From contig NC_014034.1 in assembly GCF_000021865.1 (NCBI RefSeq), positions 3,180,001 to 3,212,000 of the forward strand: DNA of 32,000 bases, given 5' to 3'. Shown here piece after piece: positions 23,852 to 32,000 of this stretch (position 1 is its first letter; the number at the start of each line of letters is the position of its first letter). Both the position numbers and the translations under genes were made by a program. The notes beneath the pieces are model-generated. The model did no database searches, was not told the origin of the DNA, and was given only the letters and a program-made list of their open reading frames with translations. Source of the stretch: Rhodobacter capsulatus SB 1003. Lineage in GTDB: Bacteria > Pseudomonadota > Alphaproteobacteria > Rhodobacterales > Rhodobacteraceae.

Positions 23852-24097
23852 GGTCGTTCCTTTCATTTCAGGCCGGAGCCGGTTCCTGGCCCCGGAACGG
23901 GCAGAGGGGGGCCGCCCCCCGCCTGCGATCGGCGGCAAGATACCCTGCCCACCGCGAATGTCCCAGCGAAGCCGAGGCCCCGCCGCCGACATATTGCCGC
24001 ATCTGCAAGCGCTTGGCGGCGTTTCCCGGGGCGCTGTTTACGTAATGTTTCCGCTTCTGTCCTAGGGTCCGGGCGACTTGGAAGGGAACAGGAACCG

Positions 24098-26386
24098 ATG
24101 AAACACCCGTTGAAATCCGTCTCGGGCAAGCTTGGTCTCGCGGCAGGCCTTGCGATTTCGCTGATCGTTCTGGGCTACACGGCCTATAGCGGCTGGAAAA
24201 CCTCGGCCCGGGTCGAGGCGCAGGTGATGGAGACGGCGACCGGCAAGGCCCGATTCGCCGCCGGTGAAGTGGCCCGGCAGATGACCGAGGCCGTCGCCAC
24301 CGCGGAAGCCCTCAACGGCATGGTCACCGGCTACATGCGCCACGGCCAGGCCGAGACGCCCGAGATCATCGCGATGCTGAAACAGGTTCCGATGCGCTAT
24401 GACAACCTGTTTTCGTCCTGGATGTCGGCGATCCCCGGCGGGGTGACCGACAGTTTCCTGACCGGCACCGACGGGCGAAACGCCGCGGGCGACTTTTCGC
24501 CCTACTGGACCAAGGACGGCAAGGGCGGGCTGACCTTCCAGACCTTCCCGATCGACCCGAAGGAAATGTGGTTCGACGTCCCCACGAAAACCGGCAAGAG
24601 CCTGACGACAGAGCCTTATCTGACCAAACAAGGCTATGTGGTCACCTCGATCTCGGTGCCGATGCAGATCGACGGCAAGATGGTCGGGCTGATCGGCGTC
24701 GACATCACGCTGGAAGAGATGTCGCAGATGATGGGGGAGATGGAGACCTTCGAGGGCGGGCGGATGATGCTGGTCGACGCGGCCGGCAAATGGATCGCCA
24801 ACCCCGACCCGGCGCTGTTCACCAAACCCTACGAGGGGATCGGCGCCGATCTGGTCAAAGCCGCGCTGGCCGATGGCAAGCCCCGGGTGATCGAGGGCTT
24901 CGAGGATGGCACGCGCAGGCTGGTTTATCCGTTCAGCGCCAAGGGGATGAATGTCACCTGGGCGACCATTCTGGACGTTCCGGGGGCGGTCTTCACCACC
25001 CCGGTTCACCACGAGGTGCTTGCCACCACGCTGGGCGGGTTGGCGATTCTGGTGATGACGCTGGGGGCGATCTATCTTGCCGCCTCGGCGCTGGTGCAGC
25101 GGCCGCTCGGGCGGATGCTGGCGGCGGTGAACGGGCTGGCGGCGGGGGTCTATGACACCCCGGTTGCGGGCACCGAACGGCGCGACGAGATCGGCGCCAT
25201 GGCCGCCTCGGTCGAGACCCTGCGGCATGTGCTGGCCGACCGCAAGCAGCTTGAGGCCGAACAGACCCGGCTGCGCGCCGAAGCCGAGACGCAGCGCCTG
25301 CAGCGCGAGGCCGAAGCGGCGCGGATGCGCGACGAACGCGAGGCGAGCCGTCTGGCCGAGATCGACCGCGACCGCCGCGAGGCCGCCGCGCTCGAAGAGG
25401 CCCGCCGCGCCGAGGAGGCGCAGCGCGAAGCCCATGCCAACGAACAGTCGCAGGTGGTCGAAAGCCTGGCCTCGGGCCTGCGCGATCTGGCGCGGGGCGA
25501 TCTGTCGGTGGCGATCTCGACCCGGTTCCCGCCCGCCTATGAACAGCTGCGGATCGATTTCAACGAAACCGTGGCGCGGCTGTCGGATGTGATGGGATCG
25601 ATCGATGCGGCGACGCGCTCGATCACCGGCGGCGTCGCCGAGATCACCGGCGCGACCACCGATCTGTCGCGGCAGGCCGAAACCGCGGCGGCGACGCTGG
25701 AGCAAACCGCGGCGGCGCTGAACGAGCTGACCGCCTCGGTGCAATCGGCGGCGCAAAGCGCGCGGCAGGTCGACACCATCGTGCGCGGCGCCACCGAAAA
25801 GGCGCGGACCACGACCCAGGTGGTCGAGGAAACCGTGACCGCCATGGGCGCGATCCAGACCTCGTCGGAACAGATCTCGCGGATCATCACCGTGATCGAC
25901 GACATCGCCTTCCAGACCAACCTGCTGGCGCTGAACGCGGGCGTCGAGGCCGCCCGGGCGGGCGAGGCGGGCCGCGGCTTCGCCGTCGTCGCCTCGGAGG
26001 TGCGGGCGCTGGCGCAACGCGCCTCGGAAGCCGCCCGCGAGATCGGCGCGCTGATTTCCAGCTCGGGCGATCAGGTGACGACCGGGGTCGCCCTTGTCGG
26101 CCGCGCCGGAGAGGCGCTGCGGGTCATCGTCGAGGCGGTCGAAACGATTTCCAGCCATGTCGGCGAGATCGCGTCTTCGGCGCATGAACAGGCCTCGGGC
26201 ATCGGCGAGATCAGTTCCGCGATGAACCAGCTCGACCGGACGCAGCAGCACAATGCCGCCGCCTACGAGGAAACCGCCGCCGCCTGCATGACATTGAGCG
26301 GGCAGACCCGCGGGCTCGAGGAACTGGTCAGCCAGTTCCGCATCGGCGCCCCGGCGCGCGACGCGCAAGACAGCGCCGCCGCCTGA
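24098..26386 (+). CDS. Methyl-accepting chemotaxis protein with a periplasmic Cache-type sensor
   Basis: ATG at 24098, two TM segments flanking a roughly 280-aa periplasmic domain, HAMP, then the conserved signalling hairpin [40 protein letters not shown]. The track ORF start at 22889 is antisense to lsrF. Confidence 0.92.
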
Positions 26387-26506
26387 CCCGGCGCCCGCGC
26401 CTGACCGGGGGAACGTCTCTCTGCGGCGGGTCCGTCCGGTCGGACGCTCTGCCGCAGGGTGCATGTCGCCTCTGGCGTCGGCGGCGCGGGCGTGGTTGAA
26501 CATCCC

Positions 26507-28279
26507 ATGTCCATTGCATCCGAAATCGGCCTCTACCGCGAGGCGCTCGTGTTTCTCGGCACGGCCGGGGTCATCATTCCGCTGATGACCCGGTTCCGCA
26601 TCAGCCCGGTGGTCGGATTTCTGGTCGCCGGCCTGCTGCTCGGCCCGCATGCCATCGGCCGGTTCGCCGACACTTTCCCGCCCCTCGGCTGGATCACCAT
26701 CCGCTCGCAGGAGGCGGTCGATCAGCTGGCCGAGCTGGGCGTGGCCTTCCTTCTGTTCACCATCGGGCTTGAGCTTTCGCTCGACCGGCTCTGGACGATG
26801 CGCCGCTCGGTCTTCGGGCTGGGCATGGCGCAGGTCGCCCTGACCACCGCGGCGATCGCGGTCACCGCCTTTGCCTTCGGCAACCCGATCGACGCCAGCC
26901 TGGTGATCGGCGCCTGTCTGGCGCTGTCCTCGACCGCGATCGTGGTGCAGCTTCTGGCCGAACAGCACCGGCTGACCTCGGTCGCGGGGCGCAACATCTT
27001 TGGCGTGCTTCTGGCGCAGGATCTGGCGGTGGTGCCGATCCTGTTTCTGATCGTCGTCTTCGGCGAGGCGGGCAAGGGCGGCTCCGAGGCGATCACGCTG
27101 CAGACGGTGCTTTCGGGCCTCGGCATCGCGGTCATTCAGGCCGTTGCCGCCATCAGCCTGATCGTCGGCATCGGCCGGGTGATCCTGCGCCGCCTGTTCC
27201 GCTCGGTCGCGCGCACGCACAACCGGGAATTGTTCATGGCGGCGATCCTCTTCGTCGTCGTCGGCACCTCGCTGATCACCCTTGCCGCCGGGCTGTCGAT
27301 GGCGCTTGGCGCCTTTCTGGCCGGGCTTCTGCTGGCCGAGACCGAGTTCCGCCGTCAGGTCGAGGTCGATATCGAACCCTTCAAGGGCCTGCTGCTCGGC
27401 CTGTTCTTCATCTCGGTGGGGATGCGGATCGACCCGGCCTCGGTGGCGCAGCATCCGGTGATGCTGGCGATGTCGGTGATCGGCATGACCGGGCTCAAGG
27501 CGGCGGTGATCGCGCTGCTGGCGCGGCTGTTCGGTCTGGCCTGGCCCGTGGCGCTGGAAGCCAGCCTGCTGCTGGCGGGCGGCGGCGAATTTGCCTTTCT
27601 CGTGCTCAGCCTGGCCGGTTCCTCGGGGCTGACCACGCCCGAGGTGGAACAGTTCATGCTGCTTGTCGCCTCGGGGACGATGCTGGCGACGCCGGTTCTG
27701 GCGCGGATGGGGCGCAGCCTTGGCCAGCGCAGCACCCGCGCCACCGCGCTGACCGATCTGCCCGCCGAGACCCCCGAGGCCATCGCCAGCCGTCCGCTGG
27801 TGATCGGCGGCGGCCGGGTCGGCAAGCTTGTCTGCGACGTGCTGGCGGGCGAGGGCTACAGCTGTCTGGTCATCGACCGCGATGCCGAGCTGGTGGCGCG
27901 CGGCCGGGCCGAGGGGCGCGACATCATCTTCGGCGATGCCCAGCGCCCCGGCATCTTGCGCAAATGCGGCATCGAAACCGCGCCGATCGTGGTGGTCACG
28001 CTGCATGACGCGGCGATCACCGAACAGGTGGTGACGATGCTGCACCGGCTGCGCCCCGACCTGCCGGTGATCGCGCGGGCCCGCGATGCGGACCATGCGG
28101 TGCGGCTGTTCTCGATGGGGGCAGTGCAGGTGATTCCCGAGGCTTTCGAAACCGGGCTGGATCTGGCGGGCGTCACGCTGCGTCGCCTTGGCGCCCCGGC
28201 CGAACATACCCATGCGCTGCTGGAAACCCGGCGCGAGGCGATGCTGCGGCTGTTGCGCAGCGAGCCGGGCCCGGGCTGA
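26507..28279 (+). CDS. CPA2-family monovalent cation:proton antiporter (KefB/KefC-like) with a C-terminal RCK/TrkA-N domain
   Basis: 12-13 hydrophobic helices, followed by a Rossmann motif VIGGGRVGKLVCDVLAGEGYSCLVIDRD. Confidence 0.88.
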   Translation: MSIASEIGLYREALVFLGTAGVIIPLMTRFRISPVVGFLVAGLLLGPHAIGRFADTFPPLGWITIRSQEAVDQLAELGVAFLLFTIGLELSLDRLWTMRRSVFGLGMAQVALTTAAIAVTAFAFGNPIDASLVIGACLALSSTAIVVQLLAEQHRLTSVAGRNIFGVLLAQDLAVVPILFLIVVFGEAGKGGSEAITLQTVLSGLGIAVIQAVAAISLIVGIGRVILRRLFRSVARTHNRELFMAAILFVVVGTSLITLAAGLSMALGAFLAGLLLAETEFRRQVEVDIEPFKGLLLGLFFISVGMRIDPASVAQHPVMLAMSVIGMTGLKAAVIALLARLFGLAWPVALEASLLLAGGGEFAFLVLSLAGSSGLTTPEVEQFMLLVASGTMLATPVLARMGRSLGQRSTRATALTDLPAETPEAIASRPLVIGGGRVGKLVCDVLAGEGYSCLVIDRDAELVARGRAEGRDIIFGDAQRPGILRKCGIETAPIVVVTLHDAAITEQVVTMLHRLRPDLPVIARARDADHAVRLFSMGAVQVIPEAFETGLDLAGVTLRRLGAPAEHTHALLETRREAMLRLLRSEPGPG

Positions 28280-28360
28280 GCCGGGCAGGAAACGGGCCAG
28301 CCCGGGCCTGCGCGCAAACGTACCCTTCCCAGACCGGGGGCAAGACCGCATCATCCGGGC

Positions 28361-29185
28361 ATGGATGACACCTTTTCTCCTTCCCGGCACGGCCTTGGCC
28401 ATTCCACCAATCTGGTCGGGCGGCCCTCGGCCTGGATGGCGAGCCCCGGCTTCAACGATGCGCCCGTTGCGCTGCATATCTGGGGCGTGCGGGAAATGAA
28501 CCCGGCGCTGTTCACCATGCTTGATCAGGCGGAAACGCTGGCCGAGGCGGGCGAGGCCTTTCTGGCCTATATGGTGGCGATGTTCGGCATCGACCCCGAG
28601 CAGCGCGACGCCGCCCCGGGCAGCCGCAAGCGGTTCCGCTCGTCCTTCCTGCGGCTCATTCAGGGCTGGGGTTTTGACAGCAACGGCCCCGAGGGCGCGG
28701 TGCTGAAGGGCTGGGTGGAAAGCCGCTTCGGCATCCTGCCCAGCTTTCACAAGGAGATCATCCCCGACACCCAGGGCCCGGTCTGGCAGGCCTATGTGGC
28801 CGAACGGATGCAAAGCCGCTTTCACGACAATGCGATCCTCGTGCAGCTCGATCTGCTGTTCGAATTCTGCCAATGGGCGGTGGCCCGTTTCGCCTATCCG
28901 GGGCAAAGCCATCTGACGCTCTATCGCGGCATCAATGCGGTCGACCGGCATGGCATTCTGGAACAGCAAAGCCGCCGCGCGGCGGTAATCCGGCTCAACA
29001 ATCTTGTGTCGTTTTCCTCCGACCGCGAGGTGGCGGACTGCTTTGGCGACCGGATCATCACGACCCGGGTGCCGCTGGCCAAGGTGCTGTTCTTTCCCGG
29101 CCTGCTGCCCTCGCCCCTGTTGCGGGGCGAGCGCGAATTTCTGGTGCTTGGCGGCGCGTTTCGGGTCAGTATCGAGGATATCTAG
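28361..29185 (+). CDS. draT: NAD+--dinitrogen-reductase ADP-D-ribosyltransferase
   Basis: GHSTNLVG near the N-terminus, LTLYRGIN and REFLVLGG (R-S-E ART-type elements), and it lies immediately upstream of draG. The start at 28361 is taken from the track; internal ATGs are possible alternatives. Confidence 0.88.
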   Translation: MDDTFSPSRHGLGHSTNLVGRPSAWMASPGFNDAPVALHIWGVREMNPALFTMLDQAETLAEAGEAFLAYMVAMFGIDPEQRDAAPGSRKRFRSSFLRLIQGWGFDSNGPEGAVLKGWVESRFGILPSFHKEIIPDTQGPVWQAYVAERMQSRFHDNAILVQLDLLFEFCQWAVARFAYPGQSHLTLYRGINAVDRHGILEQQSRRAAVIRLNNLVSFSSDREVADCFGDRIITTRVPLAKVLFFPGLLPSPLLRGEREFLVLGGAFRVSIEDI

Positions 29186-29196
29186 GGGGATGCGCG

Positions 29197-30072
29197 ATGG
29201 GCGATGTGCAGGATCGGGCGATGGCGGCCTTTCTCGGCTTTGCCCTGGGCGATGCGCTGGGGGCGACGGTCGAATTCCTGACCCCGCGCGAGATCGCGGC
29301 GCGGCACGGCCTGCACAGGGAGATCATCGGCGGCGGCTGGCTGAAGCTGAAGCCCGGCGCGGTGACCGATGACACGCAGATGGCGCTGGTGCTGGGGCGC
29401 TCGCTGATCGCGCGGCAGGGCTTTGATGCAAGGGACATCTGCGCCGGGTTTGCCGCCTGGCTGAAATCGGGTCCGGCCGATGTCGGCAACACCTGTCGGC
29501 GCGGCATCCGGCGGTTTTTGGAACAGGGCACGGTCGAGGGCCCCTATGCCGAGGATGACGCGGGCAATGGCGCGGCGATGCGGGTGCTGCCGGTGGCGCT
29601 GGCGACGCTGGGCCATCCCGAACGCGCCGCCGCCTGGACCGTGGCGCAGGCGCATGCGACGCATAACCACCCGCTCTCCGATGCCGCCTGTGTCGCGCTG
29701 GTGCGGATGGTGCAGGGGCTGGTGCTTGGCGGGGGGGCCGCGGTCATTGCCCGCGAGGCCGAGGCGCTGATCGCGCAACATCGCGATTTCCGTTTCGTGC
29801 CCTATCGCGGCCGGTCCTCGGCCTTCGTGGTCGAGACGCTGCAGACGGTGCTGCATTACACGCTCTCATCGGAGAGTTTCGAGGAGGTGCTGACCGGCAC
29901 CGTCAATCAGGGCGGCGATGCCGATACGACGGGGGCGCTGGCGGGGATGCTGGCGGGGGCGCGCGGCGGGATGGCGGCGCTGCCGGAACGCTGGCTTGCG
30001 GCGCTTGACCCCGCGGTGACGGCCGAGATCCGCGCTCAGGTGCCGAAGCTGCTGGCGCTTTCGGGCATCTGA
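29197..30072 (+). CDS. draG: ADP-ribosyl-[dinitrogen reductase] glycohydrolase
   Basis: FLGFALGDALGATVEF, VTDDTQMAL and NQGGDADTTGALAGMLAGA are ADP-ribosylglycohydrolase signatures. ATG at 29197 after a GGGGGA RBS. The track ORF start at 28873 lies inside draT. Confidence 0.92.
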   Translation: MGDVQDRAMAAFLGFALGDALGATVEFLTPREIAARHGLHREIIGGGWLKLKPGAVTDDTQMALVLGRSLIARQGFDARDICAGFAAWLKSGPADVGNTCRRGIRRFLEQGTVEGPYAEDDAGNGAAMRVLPVALATLGHPERAAAWTVAQAHATHNHPLSDAACVALVRMVQGLVLGGGAAVIAREAEALIAQHRDFRFVPYRGRSSAFVVETLQTVLHYTLSSESFEEVLTGTVNQGGDADTTGALAGMLAGARGGMAALPERWLAALDPAVTAEIRAQVPKLLALSGI

Positions 30073-31379
30073 GTGAGCTGCCGGGCCAGATCGGCCTTGC
30101 GGGCAAGAAGCGTCTCGGCCAGCGCCGCGCGGCCGCCGAACCGGGCCACGACAATGCGGATTGCGGCCTCGGGCAGGCCGATCACCACCATCAGCGCCGC
30201 ACGCAGGGCATCGGGCGGCATCGGCCCGAAGAGCGCGACCGCGAAAGGGTTGTCGGGATCGGTGCGCAGCCGGTCCACCTCGGGCACGGTGGGGCCGAAG
30301 GCGCGGCCCTTGGGGTCGCCCTGCGCCCGGAAGTCCAGCGCGCCGCCGACATCGAGCGTCGTCACCACGCCGCCGATCACGCCCTGATTGTCGCCCTGAA
30401 ACCCGGCGGCGTCCCAGTTCGCCAGCCAAGCATGCACGCCGAACCAGCGCCAGGCCTGCGCCCGCTCGGCCGGGTCCAGCTGCGACAGGCGGGATTTTTC
30501 CAGATCGACGAAGACCGTCGCCACCTGATCGGGCGCGGCGCAGGGCAGGTAGGACAGCACCGGCGCCCCGGCCAGACGGTAAAGCGCCGCCGCCAGATAT
30601 TCGTTCCGGGCATGGGCGGGGCTTTCCAGCTCCTTGACGTAAAGCCGCCCGCCCGCCGCATCGGCCCAGATCCCGCCGGGATTCGAGCCGAGCCGCCCGC
30701 CGACGCGTGTCAGCTGCGCCGGATCGACCCGCGCGGGCTCGGCCAGCGGCAGCGTCGCGCGGACAAGGGCCAGTTGCGCAGGCGTCTCGATCGCGCCGGG
30801 CCGGGCCGTCCGCACGGCGTTCACCGCCGCTTTCGGATCGGCGCCCAGTTCCACCAGCAGCCGCGCCGCGATCATCCCCGCCCGGCCAAGCCCGCCCTTG
30901 CAATGCACGACGACATCGGCGCCCGCACGCAGGGCGGCGCGGATCACCCGCCCCTCGGCCTGCCAGCGCGCTTCAAAGGCCGGGGTCGGCACGGAATAAT
31001 CGGCAATCGGCAGGGGATGCCAGTCCATCCCCCGCGCGCGGACCTGCGTGCCAAGGTCCGGCACCTTGAGCATGCCCAGTTCCTGCGGCTCGACCAGCGT
31101 CAGCACATGGGCCGCGCCCCAATCCGCAATCGCATCGAGATCAAGGCCCAGATCGCGCGCCCAGGCGCCCGACATCGCGGCGCGGTCGTGCTTGCCGGGG
31201 CAAAAGGTGATGCCGATGCGACCCAGGCCGGGCCCGGCCGGAACCTCGGCGATCTGCAGCGGATGGTAAGGCTGGTGCGGCGCTGGCCATGATCCCCTCG
31301 TGGTCCGGGGCAGGATAGGGCGGCCAGGGGGGGCCCAAGGCCCGGTAACGTCGCAGGGCCGATGCCTCGCGTTCTTCAA
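30036..31379 (-). CDS. Fusion protein: N-terminal dual-specificity/CDKN3-like protein-tyrosine-phosphatase domain plus a C-terminal protein-kinase-like domain of unrecognised family
   Basis: PTP P-loop VVHCKGGLGRAG (30876..30905). The C-terminal half has GSNPGG (30672..30689), YVK, NEYLA, WLANWDAAGFQGDN and LDVGGAL in the order expected for a kinase fold. The start is uncertain: the TTG at 31379 lies in IS-derived low-GC DNA, and there is no in-frame ATG before the conserved GITFCPGK. The 3' end overlaps draG by 37 nt. Confidence 0.7.
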   Translation of the reverse strand: MKNARHRPCDVTGPWAPPGRPILPRTTRGSWPAPHQPYHPLQIAEVPAGPGLGRIGITFCPGKHDRAAMSGAWARDLGLDLDAIADWGAAHVLTLVEPQELGMLKVPDLGTQVRARGMDWHPLPIADYSVPTPAFEARWQAEGRVIRAALRAGADVVVHCKGGLGRAGMIAARLLVELGADPKAAVNAVRTARPGAIETPAQLALVRATLPLAEPARVDPAQLTRVGGRLGSNPGGIWADAAGGRLYVKELESPAHARNEYLAAALYRLAGAPVLSYLPCAAPDQVATVFVDLEKSRLSQLDPAERAQAWRWFGVHAWLANWDAAGFQGDNQGVIGGVVTTLDVGGALDFRAQGDPKGRAFGPTVPEVDRLRTDPDNPFAVALFGPMPPDALRAALMVVIGLPEAAIRIVVARFGGRAALAETLLARKADLARQLTQMPESASSFGT

Positions 31380-32000
31380 TTGCGTTTTGTAGGCTGTCAG
31401 GGATACTGTCCCACGAATGGTCCACCTGTAAGCTCCTCATGACCATTTTTGTTGATTCTCCACAACGAGTTAGTTCTTCTTTTCGGATCCGGCACTTCTG
31501 GGGGGGAAATCCAGCGATGGCTGGATTAAGTCGTCAATTAAAAATGCGGCGAGTATATTAGCAAATATCCACGCTTTCGCGAATTCAGGTTCCTTTGCAC
31601 GCAAAGCATCCAAGTGCAGCAAACTTTTGAACCGCTTAAAAGCCAGTTCAATTTACCATCACAAACGGTAACAATCAGCCACTTGCTCTGCTGAATATTC
31701 ATCTTCCGGTAATGATGTTAGCAATAGCACATGGCCCGCTGCTTCCATCGTTTCCGCCTGAACTACTCGTCCTTTTCAACGATTCTCGCTGAGCAGTCGG
31801 GTTTTACTGATTAATGCTTTTTCGGGAGGAAGTGATACGGCAATGAGACGTGCCGGAAAGGGAGCTCCGGCTTTTTTATTACCTGAATTGCCTATCATTA
31901 CAGTGGTTTCACCGTTCTTACCGCAATCCAGCCCGCGCAGAAAACCCATCATGTCAAAGCGCATTCCTTCTGCAGTTAACCAGCGCAATCCTCGCCAGTG
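31361..32000 (-). mobile_element. Partial IS186-type (IS4 family) insertion sequence, 3' portion, continuing past the right edge
   Basis: GC drops to about 45% (27/60 hand-counted at 31501-31560). The minus-strand translation matches E. coli IS186 transposase InsL as I recall it. I found no terminal inverted repeat at the inner boundary, which I place at about 31360 from composition and recollection. Confidence 0.75.
31470..32000 (-). pseudogene. IS186-type DDE transposase, C-terminal part, inactivated by three in-frame stops
   Basis: One continuous frame reads ...RWLTAEGMRFDMMGFLRGLDCGKNGETTVMIGNSGNKKAGAPFPARLIAVSLPPEKALISKTRLLSENR*KGRVVQAETMEAAGHVLLLTSLPEDEYSAEQVADCYRL*W*IELAFKRFKSLLHLDALRAKEPEFAKAWIFANILAAFLIDDLIQPSLDFPPRSAGSEKKN*. 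Internal stops are at 31776-31778, 31659-31661 and 31653-31655, with no frameshifts. Confidence 0.8.

Follow-up and report, generated by a model that had tools for sequence, protein, structure and literature searches.

A stretch of 32,000 nucleotides (nt) from the chromosome of Rhodobacter capsulatus SB 1003 (NC_014034.1, positions 3,180,001 to 3,212,000; hereafter the window, from whose first base coordinates are counted) contains a minus-strand gene that ends tail-to-tail with draG and encodes a cysteine-based phosphatase fused to a domain of protein-kinase-like fold. The phosphatase belongs to a known family and is unremarkable within it; what is new is the kinase-fold family, its obligate pairing with a phosphatase in the cellular genomes examined, and its double association with ADP-ribosyltransferases, as a chromosomal neighbour of draT and as part of large phage proteins. 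For decades, work on DraT and DraG has treated them as a two-enzyme switch under PII control. A conserved kinase/phosphatase gene, catalytically intact by prediction, lies tail-to-tail with draG in R. capsulatus and its relatives; it has apparently been overlooked, and may take part in controlling ADP-ribosylation. The interpretation developed below, for and against which we find the case evenly balanced, is that the protein would both write and erase a phosphate, and that this activity would be tied to the cycle of ADP-ribosylation, in which its substrate would lie.

A conserved two-domain gene

A preliminary description of the window had joined the two domains in one open reading frame (ORF) of 447 codons, and each of the motifs that it quoted was located where it had been placed (Table 1). 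The ORF is present as described, on the minus strand from a TTG codon, but the native protein is ~418 amino acids (aa) long and the first 38 codons are spurious, for reasons given with the 5' end below. The length of the ORF was no evidence for a gene, because long antisense ORFs arise in DNA of ~70% G+C, as the window is; it also holds a 1635-codon ORF (24062..28969, minus strand), on the opposite strand to the Na+/H+ exchanger gene and adjacent genes, which is an artefact of high G+C content. A homology search found 774 relatives, with E-values down to 5e-242. The 120 of these that were listed were each 390-448 aa long, and covered 86-92% of the query at 61-92% identity. Relatives belonged to Rhodobacter, Rhodovulum, Blastochloris, Rhodoblastus, Bradyrhizobium, Rhodopila, Rhodovastum and several beta- and gammaproteobacteria. 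This homology ruled out a chance ORF; given these relatives, and a phosphatase domain that scored above Pfam gathering cut-offs, the ORF is, on the evidence of sequence, a real and strongly conserved gene. NCBI names the relatives 'cyclin-dependent kinase inhibitor 3 family protein', which covers the N-terminal domain only, i.e., the first 40% of the protein; the name 'CDKN3 family protein' thereby hides over half of it.

A cysteine phosphatase at the N-terminus

The N-terminal domain had been described as a phosphatase of the CDKN3/dual-specificity type, and this was upheld both by profile and by structure. Three Pfam families scored above their gathering cut-offs (given second): PTP-SAK (39.8 bits, 27), Tc-R-P (34.6, 27) and CDKN3 (26.0, 20.7); DSPc was below its cut-off (22.2 against 33.5 bits). 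There were sequence matches to archaeal and reconstructed-ancestral protein tyrosine phosphatase (PTP) structures (E 2e-11). When the full-length AlphaFold model was compared with solved structures using Foldseek, the best match was human KAP/CDKN3 (1fpz; E 2.7e-9, target-normalised template-modelling score (TM) 0.77), and ~40 further PTP or dual-specificity phosphatase structures matched the phosphatase domain of the model.

In an alignment of 41 orthologues, H159, C160, G162-G168 (including Arg166) and Asp127 were invariant. Asp127 aligned with the Asp of PIPDFTAP in Tk-PTP and ShufPTP, and is the candidate general acid. The domain is a bona fide cysteine phosphatase of CDKN3/PTP-SAK type and, judging by these residues, is probably active. 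It resembles CDKN3/KAP, PTP-SAK (PF22784) and Tc-R-P (PF22785) in having the HCx5R loop and an upstream Asp, and in superposing on 1fpz; it differs from members of these families, as described, in having a kinase-fold partner.

A predicted kinase fold outside the named families

The preliminary description could assign the C-terminal domain to no named family, and our searches agreed with it. Residues 215-437 had no match in Pfam or NCBIfam (E <= 1), nor in PHROGs, and a PADLOC search with the 409-aa protein gave none. When all 63 members of a stand-alone set were searched against Pfam at E <= 10, HipA_2 alone was suggestive (3 of 63, best E 0.05). Neither the whole protein (by phmmer) nor a profile of the 63 domain sequences retrieved a kinase from among PDB sequences; the matches obtained for this domain were chance similarities to cysteine desulfurases, at E ~0.5.

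The same description had also proposed a kinase-like fold, and predicted structure agreed. The full-length AlphaFold model had a predicted local distance difference test (pLDDT) value of 88.5 and a predicted template-modelling score (pTM) of 0.85; for a model of the domain only, these values were 85.2 and 0.85. All of the 50 best PDB matches of the domain-only model in Foldseek were kinases or kinase-fold phosphotransferases. The first was CtkA of Helicobacter pylori, a HipA-like Ser/Thr kinase (E 5e-5, query-normalised TM 0.50-0.53), followed by Raf, RIP2, Fam20C, and aminoglycoside and macrolide phosphotransferases. Within BFVD, a library of viral structures, large phage proteins matched with TM of 0.65-0.80, and after these came phage proteins with PI3K/PI4K catalytic domains (~0.5). 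The motif residues mapped to the expected secondary-structure elements of a kinase fold in the AlphaFold model.

Conservation of the putative catalytic Asp, Asn and Lys, on which the earlier proposal depended, was complete: the Lys, Glu, Asp, Asn and DFG-like Asp were invariant in the 41 orthologues, in the 63 stand-alone forms and in 48 phage polyvalent proteins. The phage relatives were ~30% identical, and column identity among the 48 was 14%, and still the catalytic motifs did not vary. G231, N233 and G235 of the Gly-rich loop were invariant with phage forms included; the H, W, N, D and DN of the catalytic loop were invariant in cellular and phage forms alike; and D343, G345 and G346 were invariant in orthologues and phage forms. 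Taking four alignments (A1, A3, A4 and A5), this was true of GSNPGG, K249, E260, D323, D330-N331 and D343. Modelling thus predicts that the domain is an atypical kinase, minimal in size and protein-kinase-like in fold, in which no member of the catalytic set (Lys249, Glu260, Asp323, Asp330-Asn331 and Asp343) is lacking, and both it and the phosphatase are probably catalytically active. The activation-segment-like loop ALDFRAQGDPKGRAF is the proposed site of substrate recognition. The family to which the domain belongs appears to be undescribed.

Two families were considered and rejected. The domain shares with HipA/CtkA and PI3K/PI4K kinases its fold, and the order and placement of the Gly-rich loop, Lys, Glu, catalytic Asp/Asn and metal-binding Asp; unlike these, it has H-x6-D-x6-DN as its catalytic loop, in place of DxHxxN or DRHxxN, and is only ~220 residues long, its C-terminal part being short and entirely helical. 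Membership of HipA was rejected, given that HipA_2 was below threshold, that there was no HipA N-terminal domain, and that the inspected loci contained no helix-turn-helix (HTH) antitoxin gene. Membership of PI3K/PI4K was rejected since there was no Pfam match and the loop is ANWDAAGFQGDN, not DRHxxN; the likeness is at the level of fold only.

It is improbable, in our judgement, that the C-terminal domain is not a phosphotransferase at all, being instead a pseudokinase sensor, or a kinase fold with AMPylation or glutamylation activity, which regulates the phosphatase. Kinase-fold proteins with other chemistries do exist, such as SelO and SidJ; the catalytic loop is unusual, with six residues between His and Asp and seven between Asp323 and Asn331, and at the level of sequence the domain belongs to no kinase family. 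Yet all five canonical catalytic positions were invariant across very divergent members, where pseudokinases usually lose some, and constant partnership with a phosphomonoesterase suits a phosphate product.

Pairing of the kinase fold with a phosphatase

Cellular loci were recovered using patterns from the kinase-fold domain, and 80 species loci were compared with 6 kb of flanking sequence. Both domains were present in the same order in 80 of 80, a count that is biased, since loci with both domains are preferred when a two-domain query sets the ranking. A second arrangement involved stand-alone kinase genes (~230 aa). In all three that were examined (from Methylomonas, Tolumonas and Desulfobacter), a PTP-SAK gene (184-186 aa) was situated immediately upstream; the two genes overlapped in Tolumonas and were separated by 2-8 nt in Methylomonas and Desulfobacter. 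The split pair of Tolumonas lignilytica (L090 2089..5702) is preceded directly by GNAT and NUDIX genes, and its phosphatase weakly matches Pfam PTP-NADK.

Hence, the kinase was obligately paired with a phosphatase in the cellular genomes examined. The simplest reading of so steady a pairing is that the phosphatase reverses the product of the kinase, which argues in turn that the kinase makes a phosphomonoester. Opposing activities that add and remove phosphate also reside in one polypeptide in AceK, HprK/P and the T4 polynucleotide kinase-phosphatase, and by analogy with these the present combination suggests a switch acting on a single substrate; the two domains would then share it. The folds of the three enzymes are unrelated to the protein described here, having P-loop or other kinase folds and phosphatase sites that are not of the PTP type.

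Linkage to draT and draG

The tail-to-tail arrangement with draG and the 37-nt 3' overlap of the two genes, both reported in the preliminary description, were confirmed by measurement. A functional link to draTG had been made to depend there on homologues co-localising with it. Among the 80 species loci, draT and draG were immediately downstream and convergent in 22, always tail-to-tail, so the link was not refuted, although most loci were without draTG. The loci concerned came from Rhodobacter, Rhodovulum, Phaeovulum, Fuscovulum, Blastochloris, Bradyrhizobium and Siculibacillus, and from metagenome-assembled genomes of Xanthobacteraceae, Acetobacteraceae and unclassified Alphaproteobacteria. 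In 21 of 25 related loci the distance from stop codon to stop codon was between -46 and +82 nt.

The outer flanks of this three-gene block varied between lineages. The block is flanked by dctPQM and the Na+/H+ exchanger gene in R. capsulatus, by a histone-deacetylase-like gene and hflX-hfq in Blastochloris, by an alcohol dehydrogenase gene and small ORFs in Bradyrhizobium, and by a MacB-type exporter and an ABC transporter in a strain of Cereibacter sphaeroides that has draTG. In the latter (L087 5001..7948, a Logan assembly), the phosphatase-kinase gene is convergent beside draT-draG. To our knowledge, the commonly studied strains of C. sphaeroides are without draTG; if this is so, the three genes would be present or absent together in that species.

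A differently arranged association was found in Rhodoblastus acidophilus DSM 142 (L058 1475..7233), where a second fused copy is divergent from a DRAT paralogue (Pfam E 5e-83, 49% identical), with no draG. Downstream at this locus are a Pyridox_ox_2 gene and a NifA-like regulator of GAF-sigma54-HTH architecture.

All-against-all clustering of 4756 ORFs identified no other recurrent neighbour. Nor was there one in the loci without draTG, where a Pfam census of 109 flanking ORFs returned 121 families, of which the commonest, GGDEF, was found in seven. Thus, in the loci examined, draT/draG was the sole recurrent neighbour of the phosphatase-kinase gene. The protein would resemble DraT/DraG in being a writer/eraser pair, and its gene is physically coupled to draT-draG in this window and in 22 of the 80 species loci; yet it is homologous to neither protein, its transcription runs towards theirs, and some draTG loci do not have it.

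The kinase fold in phage proteins

An exhaustive search for the domain returned 3364 representative clusters at 50% identity, mostly proteins 800-3400 aa in length. Pfam scans covered 58 of the large phage proteins, in two sets of 48 and 10. In the larger set, ADPrib_exo_Tox (an arginine-type ADP-ribosyltransferase) was found in 29, NUDIX in 14, Phage_portal_3 in 12 and DUF2213 in 7; the corresponding counts in the smaller set were 4, 3, 2 and 2. No PTP family was identified by Pfam in any of the 58, and no Pfam kinase model matched either these proteins or the phosphatase-kinase protein itself. Domains were usually ordered portal, kinase-like, transferase, or else NUDIX, kinase-like, DUF2213. 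One phage protein, P0122 (3416 aa), was matched by the kinase-like domain in five separate stretches, and so apparently carries several copies; P0129, P0133 and others were matched twice.

The domain was present in 20 GenBank phage records, among them phages of Gordonia, Pseudomonas, Aeromonas, Yersinia and Escherichia, where the proteins are annotated 'hypothetical protein' or 'ADP-ribosyltransferase'. In Aeromonas phage ST4, for instance, it is contained in a 1177-aa protein annotated 'ADP-ribosyltransferase', two genes from a NUDIX hydrolase. This kinase-fold domain is therefore very widespread, and it accompanies ADP-ribosyltransferase and NUDIX domains in virion-delivered proteins, yet Pfam, NCBIfam and PHROG have no family for it and its structure has not been solved.

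A kinase family in which an insert separates the catalytic His from the Asp has been described from polyvalent proteins (Iyer et al. 2017, PMC5512222). It is similarly a kinase-fold domain within large, virion-delivered multi-effector proteins, and two features of the present domain, H316...D323 and the Q of PxQ[VI]AT, resemble features of that family. The two families may be related, although that of Iyer et al. is reported mainly from prophages of the Verrucomicrobia-Chlamydia group and Bacteroidetes, and the Pfam scans here returned no kinase model.

A possible role in ADP-ribosylation

The mechanism that we propose has two parts. First, the ~418-aa protein would be a bifunctional enzyme in which the kinase adds phosphate from ATP and the phosphatase removes it, making it the writer and eraser of one phosphomonoester. 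Second, this module would be coupled to the ADP-ribosylation of arginine. Where the genes are arranged as in Rhodobacter, it would operate on the DraT/DraG cycle, by which the nitrogenase Fe protein is inactivated and reactivated.

Several observations count against this proposal. The sequence of the C-terminal domain has no significant match to any kinase family, and its assignment as a kinase comes from predicted structure, with modest TM values to solved kinases (0.3-0.53). Neither draT nor draG was found within 6 kb at 57 of the 80 loci; conversely, two of three draT-anchored loci, those of Rhodomicrobium and Rhodopseudomonas palustris, had no phosphatase-kinase gene nearby. All of the draTG-adjacent loci belonged to Alphaproteobacteria, and inheritance or transfer of the three-gene block could inflate the count of 22 in 80. 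The genes are convergent and hence do not form one operon. Polyvalent phage proteins pool independent effectors, so that fusion to an ADP-ribosyltransferase need not mean shared chemistry. Finally, a search of the available literature found no paper on the phosphatase-kinase gene, and a 2026 review of nitrogenase regulation gives control of DRAT/DRAG via PII proteins only. The same review, in a passage citing Pierrard et al. 1993, mentions for R. capsulatus a second effect of ammonium on nitrogenase, independent of the first, to which the phosphatase-kinase gene might contribute.

The main rival explanation, which we consider somewhat unlikely, is that the protein is a general Ser/Thr/Tyr protein kinase/phosphatase unrelated to ADP-ribosylation, and that its position beside draTG reflects an alphaproteobacterial block that was inherited or transferred. 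In its favour, 57 loci had no draTG within 6 kb, and their neighbours were heterogeneous and often concerned with signalling (GGDEF, PAS, GAF); there is no operon; and proteins are the substrates of the closest solved relatives of the kinase domain (CtkA/HipA-type kinases) as well as of the phosphatase (KAP, PRL, Cdc14 and archaeal PTPs). Against this, the three-gene block persists with different flanks in several families, a second and differently arranged pairing with a DRAT paralogue exists in Rhodoblastus acidophilus, and the kinase domain has been joined independently to ADP-ribosyltransferases in most of the phage proteins sampled. Furthermore, the genera in which the family occurs (purple bacteria, methanotrophs, Zoogloea, Rubrivivax and Thiodiazotropha) mostly include nitrogen fixers.

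A second rival is a toxin-antitoxin-like pair. Under this explanation, which seems very improbable, a HipA-like, growth-arresting kinase is restrained by its own fused or adjacent phosphatase, and draT/draG is a similar transferase/hydrolase pair that is adjacent by chance. It is consistent with HipA-like CtkA being the top structural match, with the name 'HipA-like' given to some stand-alone members in UniRef, with the weak HipA_2 matches, and with the split form, in which a small upstream gene overlaps or nearly touches the kinase gene; DraG-DraT has itself been called a toxin-antitoxin system (Iyer et al. 2022, PMC9503650). However, PADLOC gave no match, and the loci examined showed neither a HipA N-terminal domain nor a DNA-binding partner resembling HipB. 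The family also keeps 60-70% identity from one proteobacterial class to another, with one or two copies per genome at stable chromosomal sites, which is unlike fast-evolving mobile toxin pairs. This explanation, the pseudokinase explanation above and the inactivation of the gene considered below are all weaker than that of general signalling.

If the phosphatase-kinase protein does act within the ADP-ribosylation cycle, its substrate may be of two kinds. A protein target within the switch (NifH, DraT, DraG or a PII protein) is possible, and is put forward tentatively; in its support, the nearest relatives of both domains are protein-directed. The ADP-ribosyl group itself, or a nucleotide derived from NAD or ADP-ribose, is an unlikely but definite candidate, due to the fusions with transferase and NUDIX domains and to the basic residues that are invariant in the activation-like loop, and because under this option alone would a single chemistry cover the phage and cellular contexts.

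A specific version of the second option, quite unlikely to be right as it stands, is that the kinase phosphorylates the ADP-ribosyl-arginine mark, or a related molecule derived from NAD or ADP-ribose, to give a 'locked' phospho-ADP-ribosyl mark. ADP-ribosylhydrolases of the DraG type would be blocked until the paired cysteine phosphatase removed the phosphate. Of the readings considered, this alone would explain by one chemistry the linkage to draT in cells, the obligate pairing with a phosphatase, and the fusions with transferase and NUDIX domains in phages. Were it true, the locked mark would constitute a second, independently controlled layer on the DraT/DraG nitrogenase switch in diazotrophs, and injected phage proteins, which combine transferase and kinase with neither eraser, would make the ADP-ribosylation of host proteins resistant to host erasers.

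Features of the window

Table 1. Coordinates of the phosphatase-kinase gene, its domains and motifs, and adjacent features in the 32,000-nt window
Feature	Coordinates	Strand	Remarks
ORF as listed	30036..31379	-	447 codons, start TTG
Native coding sequence of phosphatase-kinase-like protein	30036..31290	-	~418 aa; as written, two 1-nt corrections needed near 31280 and 31266
Spurious 38-codon N-terminal extension	31266..31379	-	TTG start and first codons inside IS186
Cysteine-based dual-specificity/CDKN3-like phosphatase domain	30744..31265	-	Residues 39-212 of 447-aa ORF
P-loop HCKGGLGRAG (Cys160, Arg166)	30876..30905	-	From translation
Asp127, candidate general acid, in PIADYSVP	30999..31001	-	Invariant
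Predicted atypical kinase-fold domain	30069..30737	-	Residues 215-437; unnamed family closest to HipA/CtkA and PI3K/PI4K-type kinases
Gly-rich loop GSNPGG	30672..30689	-	Between predicted strands 1 and 2
Lys249 (YVK)	30633..30635	-	Position of strand 3 ATP-phosphate Lys; in predicted strand
Glu260 (NE)	30600..30602	-	Helix-C Glu position; predicted helix 216-231 of 409-residue model
Catalytic-loop-like HAWLANWDAAGFQGDNQ (His316, Asp323, Asp330, Asn331)	30384..30434	-	
DFG-like DVGG (Asp343)	30342..30353	-	Follows predicted strand pair
Activation-segment-like loop ALDFRAQGDPKGRAF (Arg351, Gly354, Lys357 invariant)	30297..30341	-	Low pLDDT in models
Convergent 3' overlap with draG	30036..30072	.	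37 nt
draG (ADP-ribosylglycohydrolase)	29197..30072	+	99.7% identical to ADP_ribosyl_GH gene of R. capsulatus L001
draT (dinitrogenase reductase ADP-ribosyltransferase)	28361..29185	+	Relatives carry Pfam DRAT; 99.6% identical to L001
End of E. coli-type IS186/IS421 element	31360..32000	.	Begins 69 nt upstream of native ATG

The 5' end and the IS186 junction

The preliminary description had the 5' end of the ORF abutting an IS186-like junction. An insertion sequence (IS) does begin at 31360, but the TTG at 31379 that was taken as the start lies inside it. The segment 31360..32000 was 97.8-98% identical to the five E. coli IS186/IS421 copies listed, and 2190 of 5426 complete E. coli genomes contain the element. 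All listed IS186 matches began at one query base; for this reason 31360 was taken as the true terminus of the element. Because the TTG falls within IS186, the 38 N-terminal codons are spurious; it is also absent from all relatives, and was rejected as a start codon.

The native start, which had been thought perhaps missing, is in place. The N-terminus of the relatives, MA.ARTS.THPLQIAEV in the orthologue alignment, corresponds to an ATG at 31288..31290 of the window, which is out of frame through two missing bases: in comparison with DNA of R. capsulatus L001 and L007, single C's are absent at ~31280 and ~31266. In all, seven one-base indels relative to L001 occurred between 31266 and 31346, i.e., within 80 nt beside the junction, and six of these were a single C or G. 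Differences from L001 in the remainder of the gene were mainly substitutions, with few paired indels. The position of the IS end corresponds in L001 to the 98-nt spacer between dctM and the phosphatase-kinase gene; the junction is 24 nt past the position of the dctM stop codon in that strain.

The clustering of indels beside the junction suggests low-quality sequence rather than mutation. The IS186 copy and the missing bases are probably artefacts of cloning or sequencing, for example transposition into a clone grown in E. coli combined with poor sequence near the junction, and the deposited sequence may carry a cloning artefact. The alternative is that the gene was truly inactivated in the source organism, with a real IS186 insertion removing the promoter and two real frameshifts breaking the frame. 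We regard this as unlikely. Both lesions are present in the sequence as given; yet an element 97.8-98% identical to E. coli copies, within Rhodobacter DNA of ~70% G+C, is what would be expected from transposition into an E. coli-grown clone, the indels are confined largely to the 80 nt at the junction, and beyond them, downstream, the frame is unbroken and fully conserved. Both the IS186 and the frameshifts of this window therefore look artefactual and should not be propagated in annotation.

Divergence from L001 was otherwise mosaic. DraT and DraG were 99.6-99.7% identical at the protein level, while the phosphatase-kinase gene was 93% identical in DNA; divergence set in near the 3' end of draG, and other R. 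capsulatus loci (L007, L008 and L010) showed other combinations. This pattern suggests that recombination between strains has occurred at this R. capsulatus locus.

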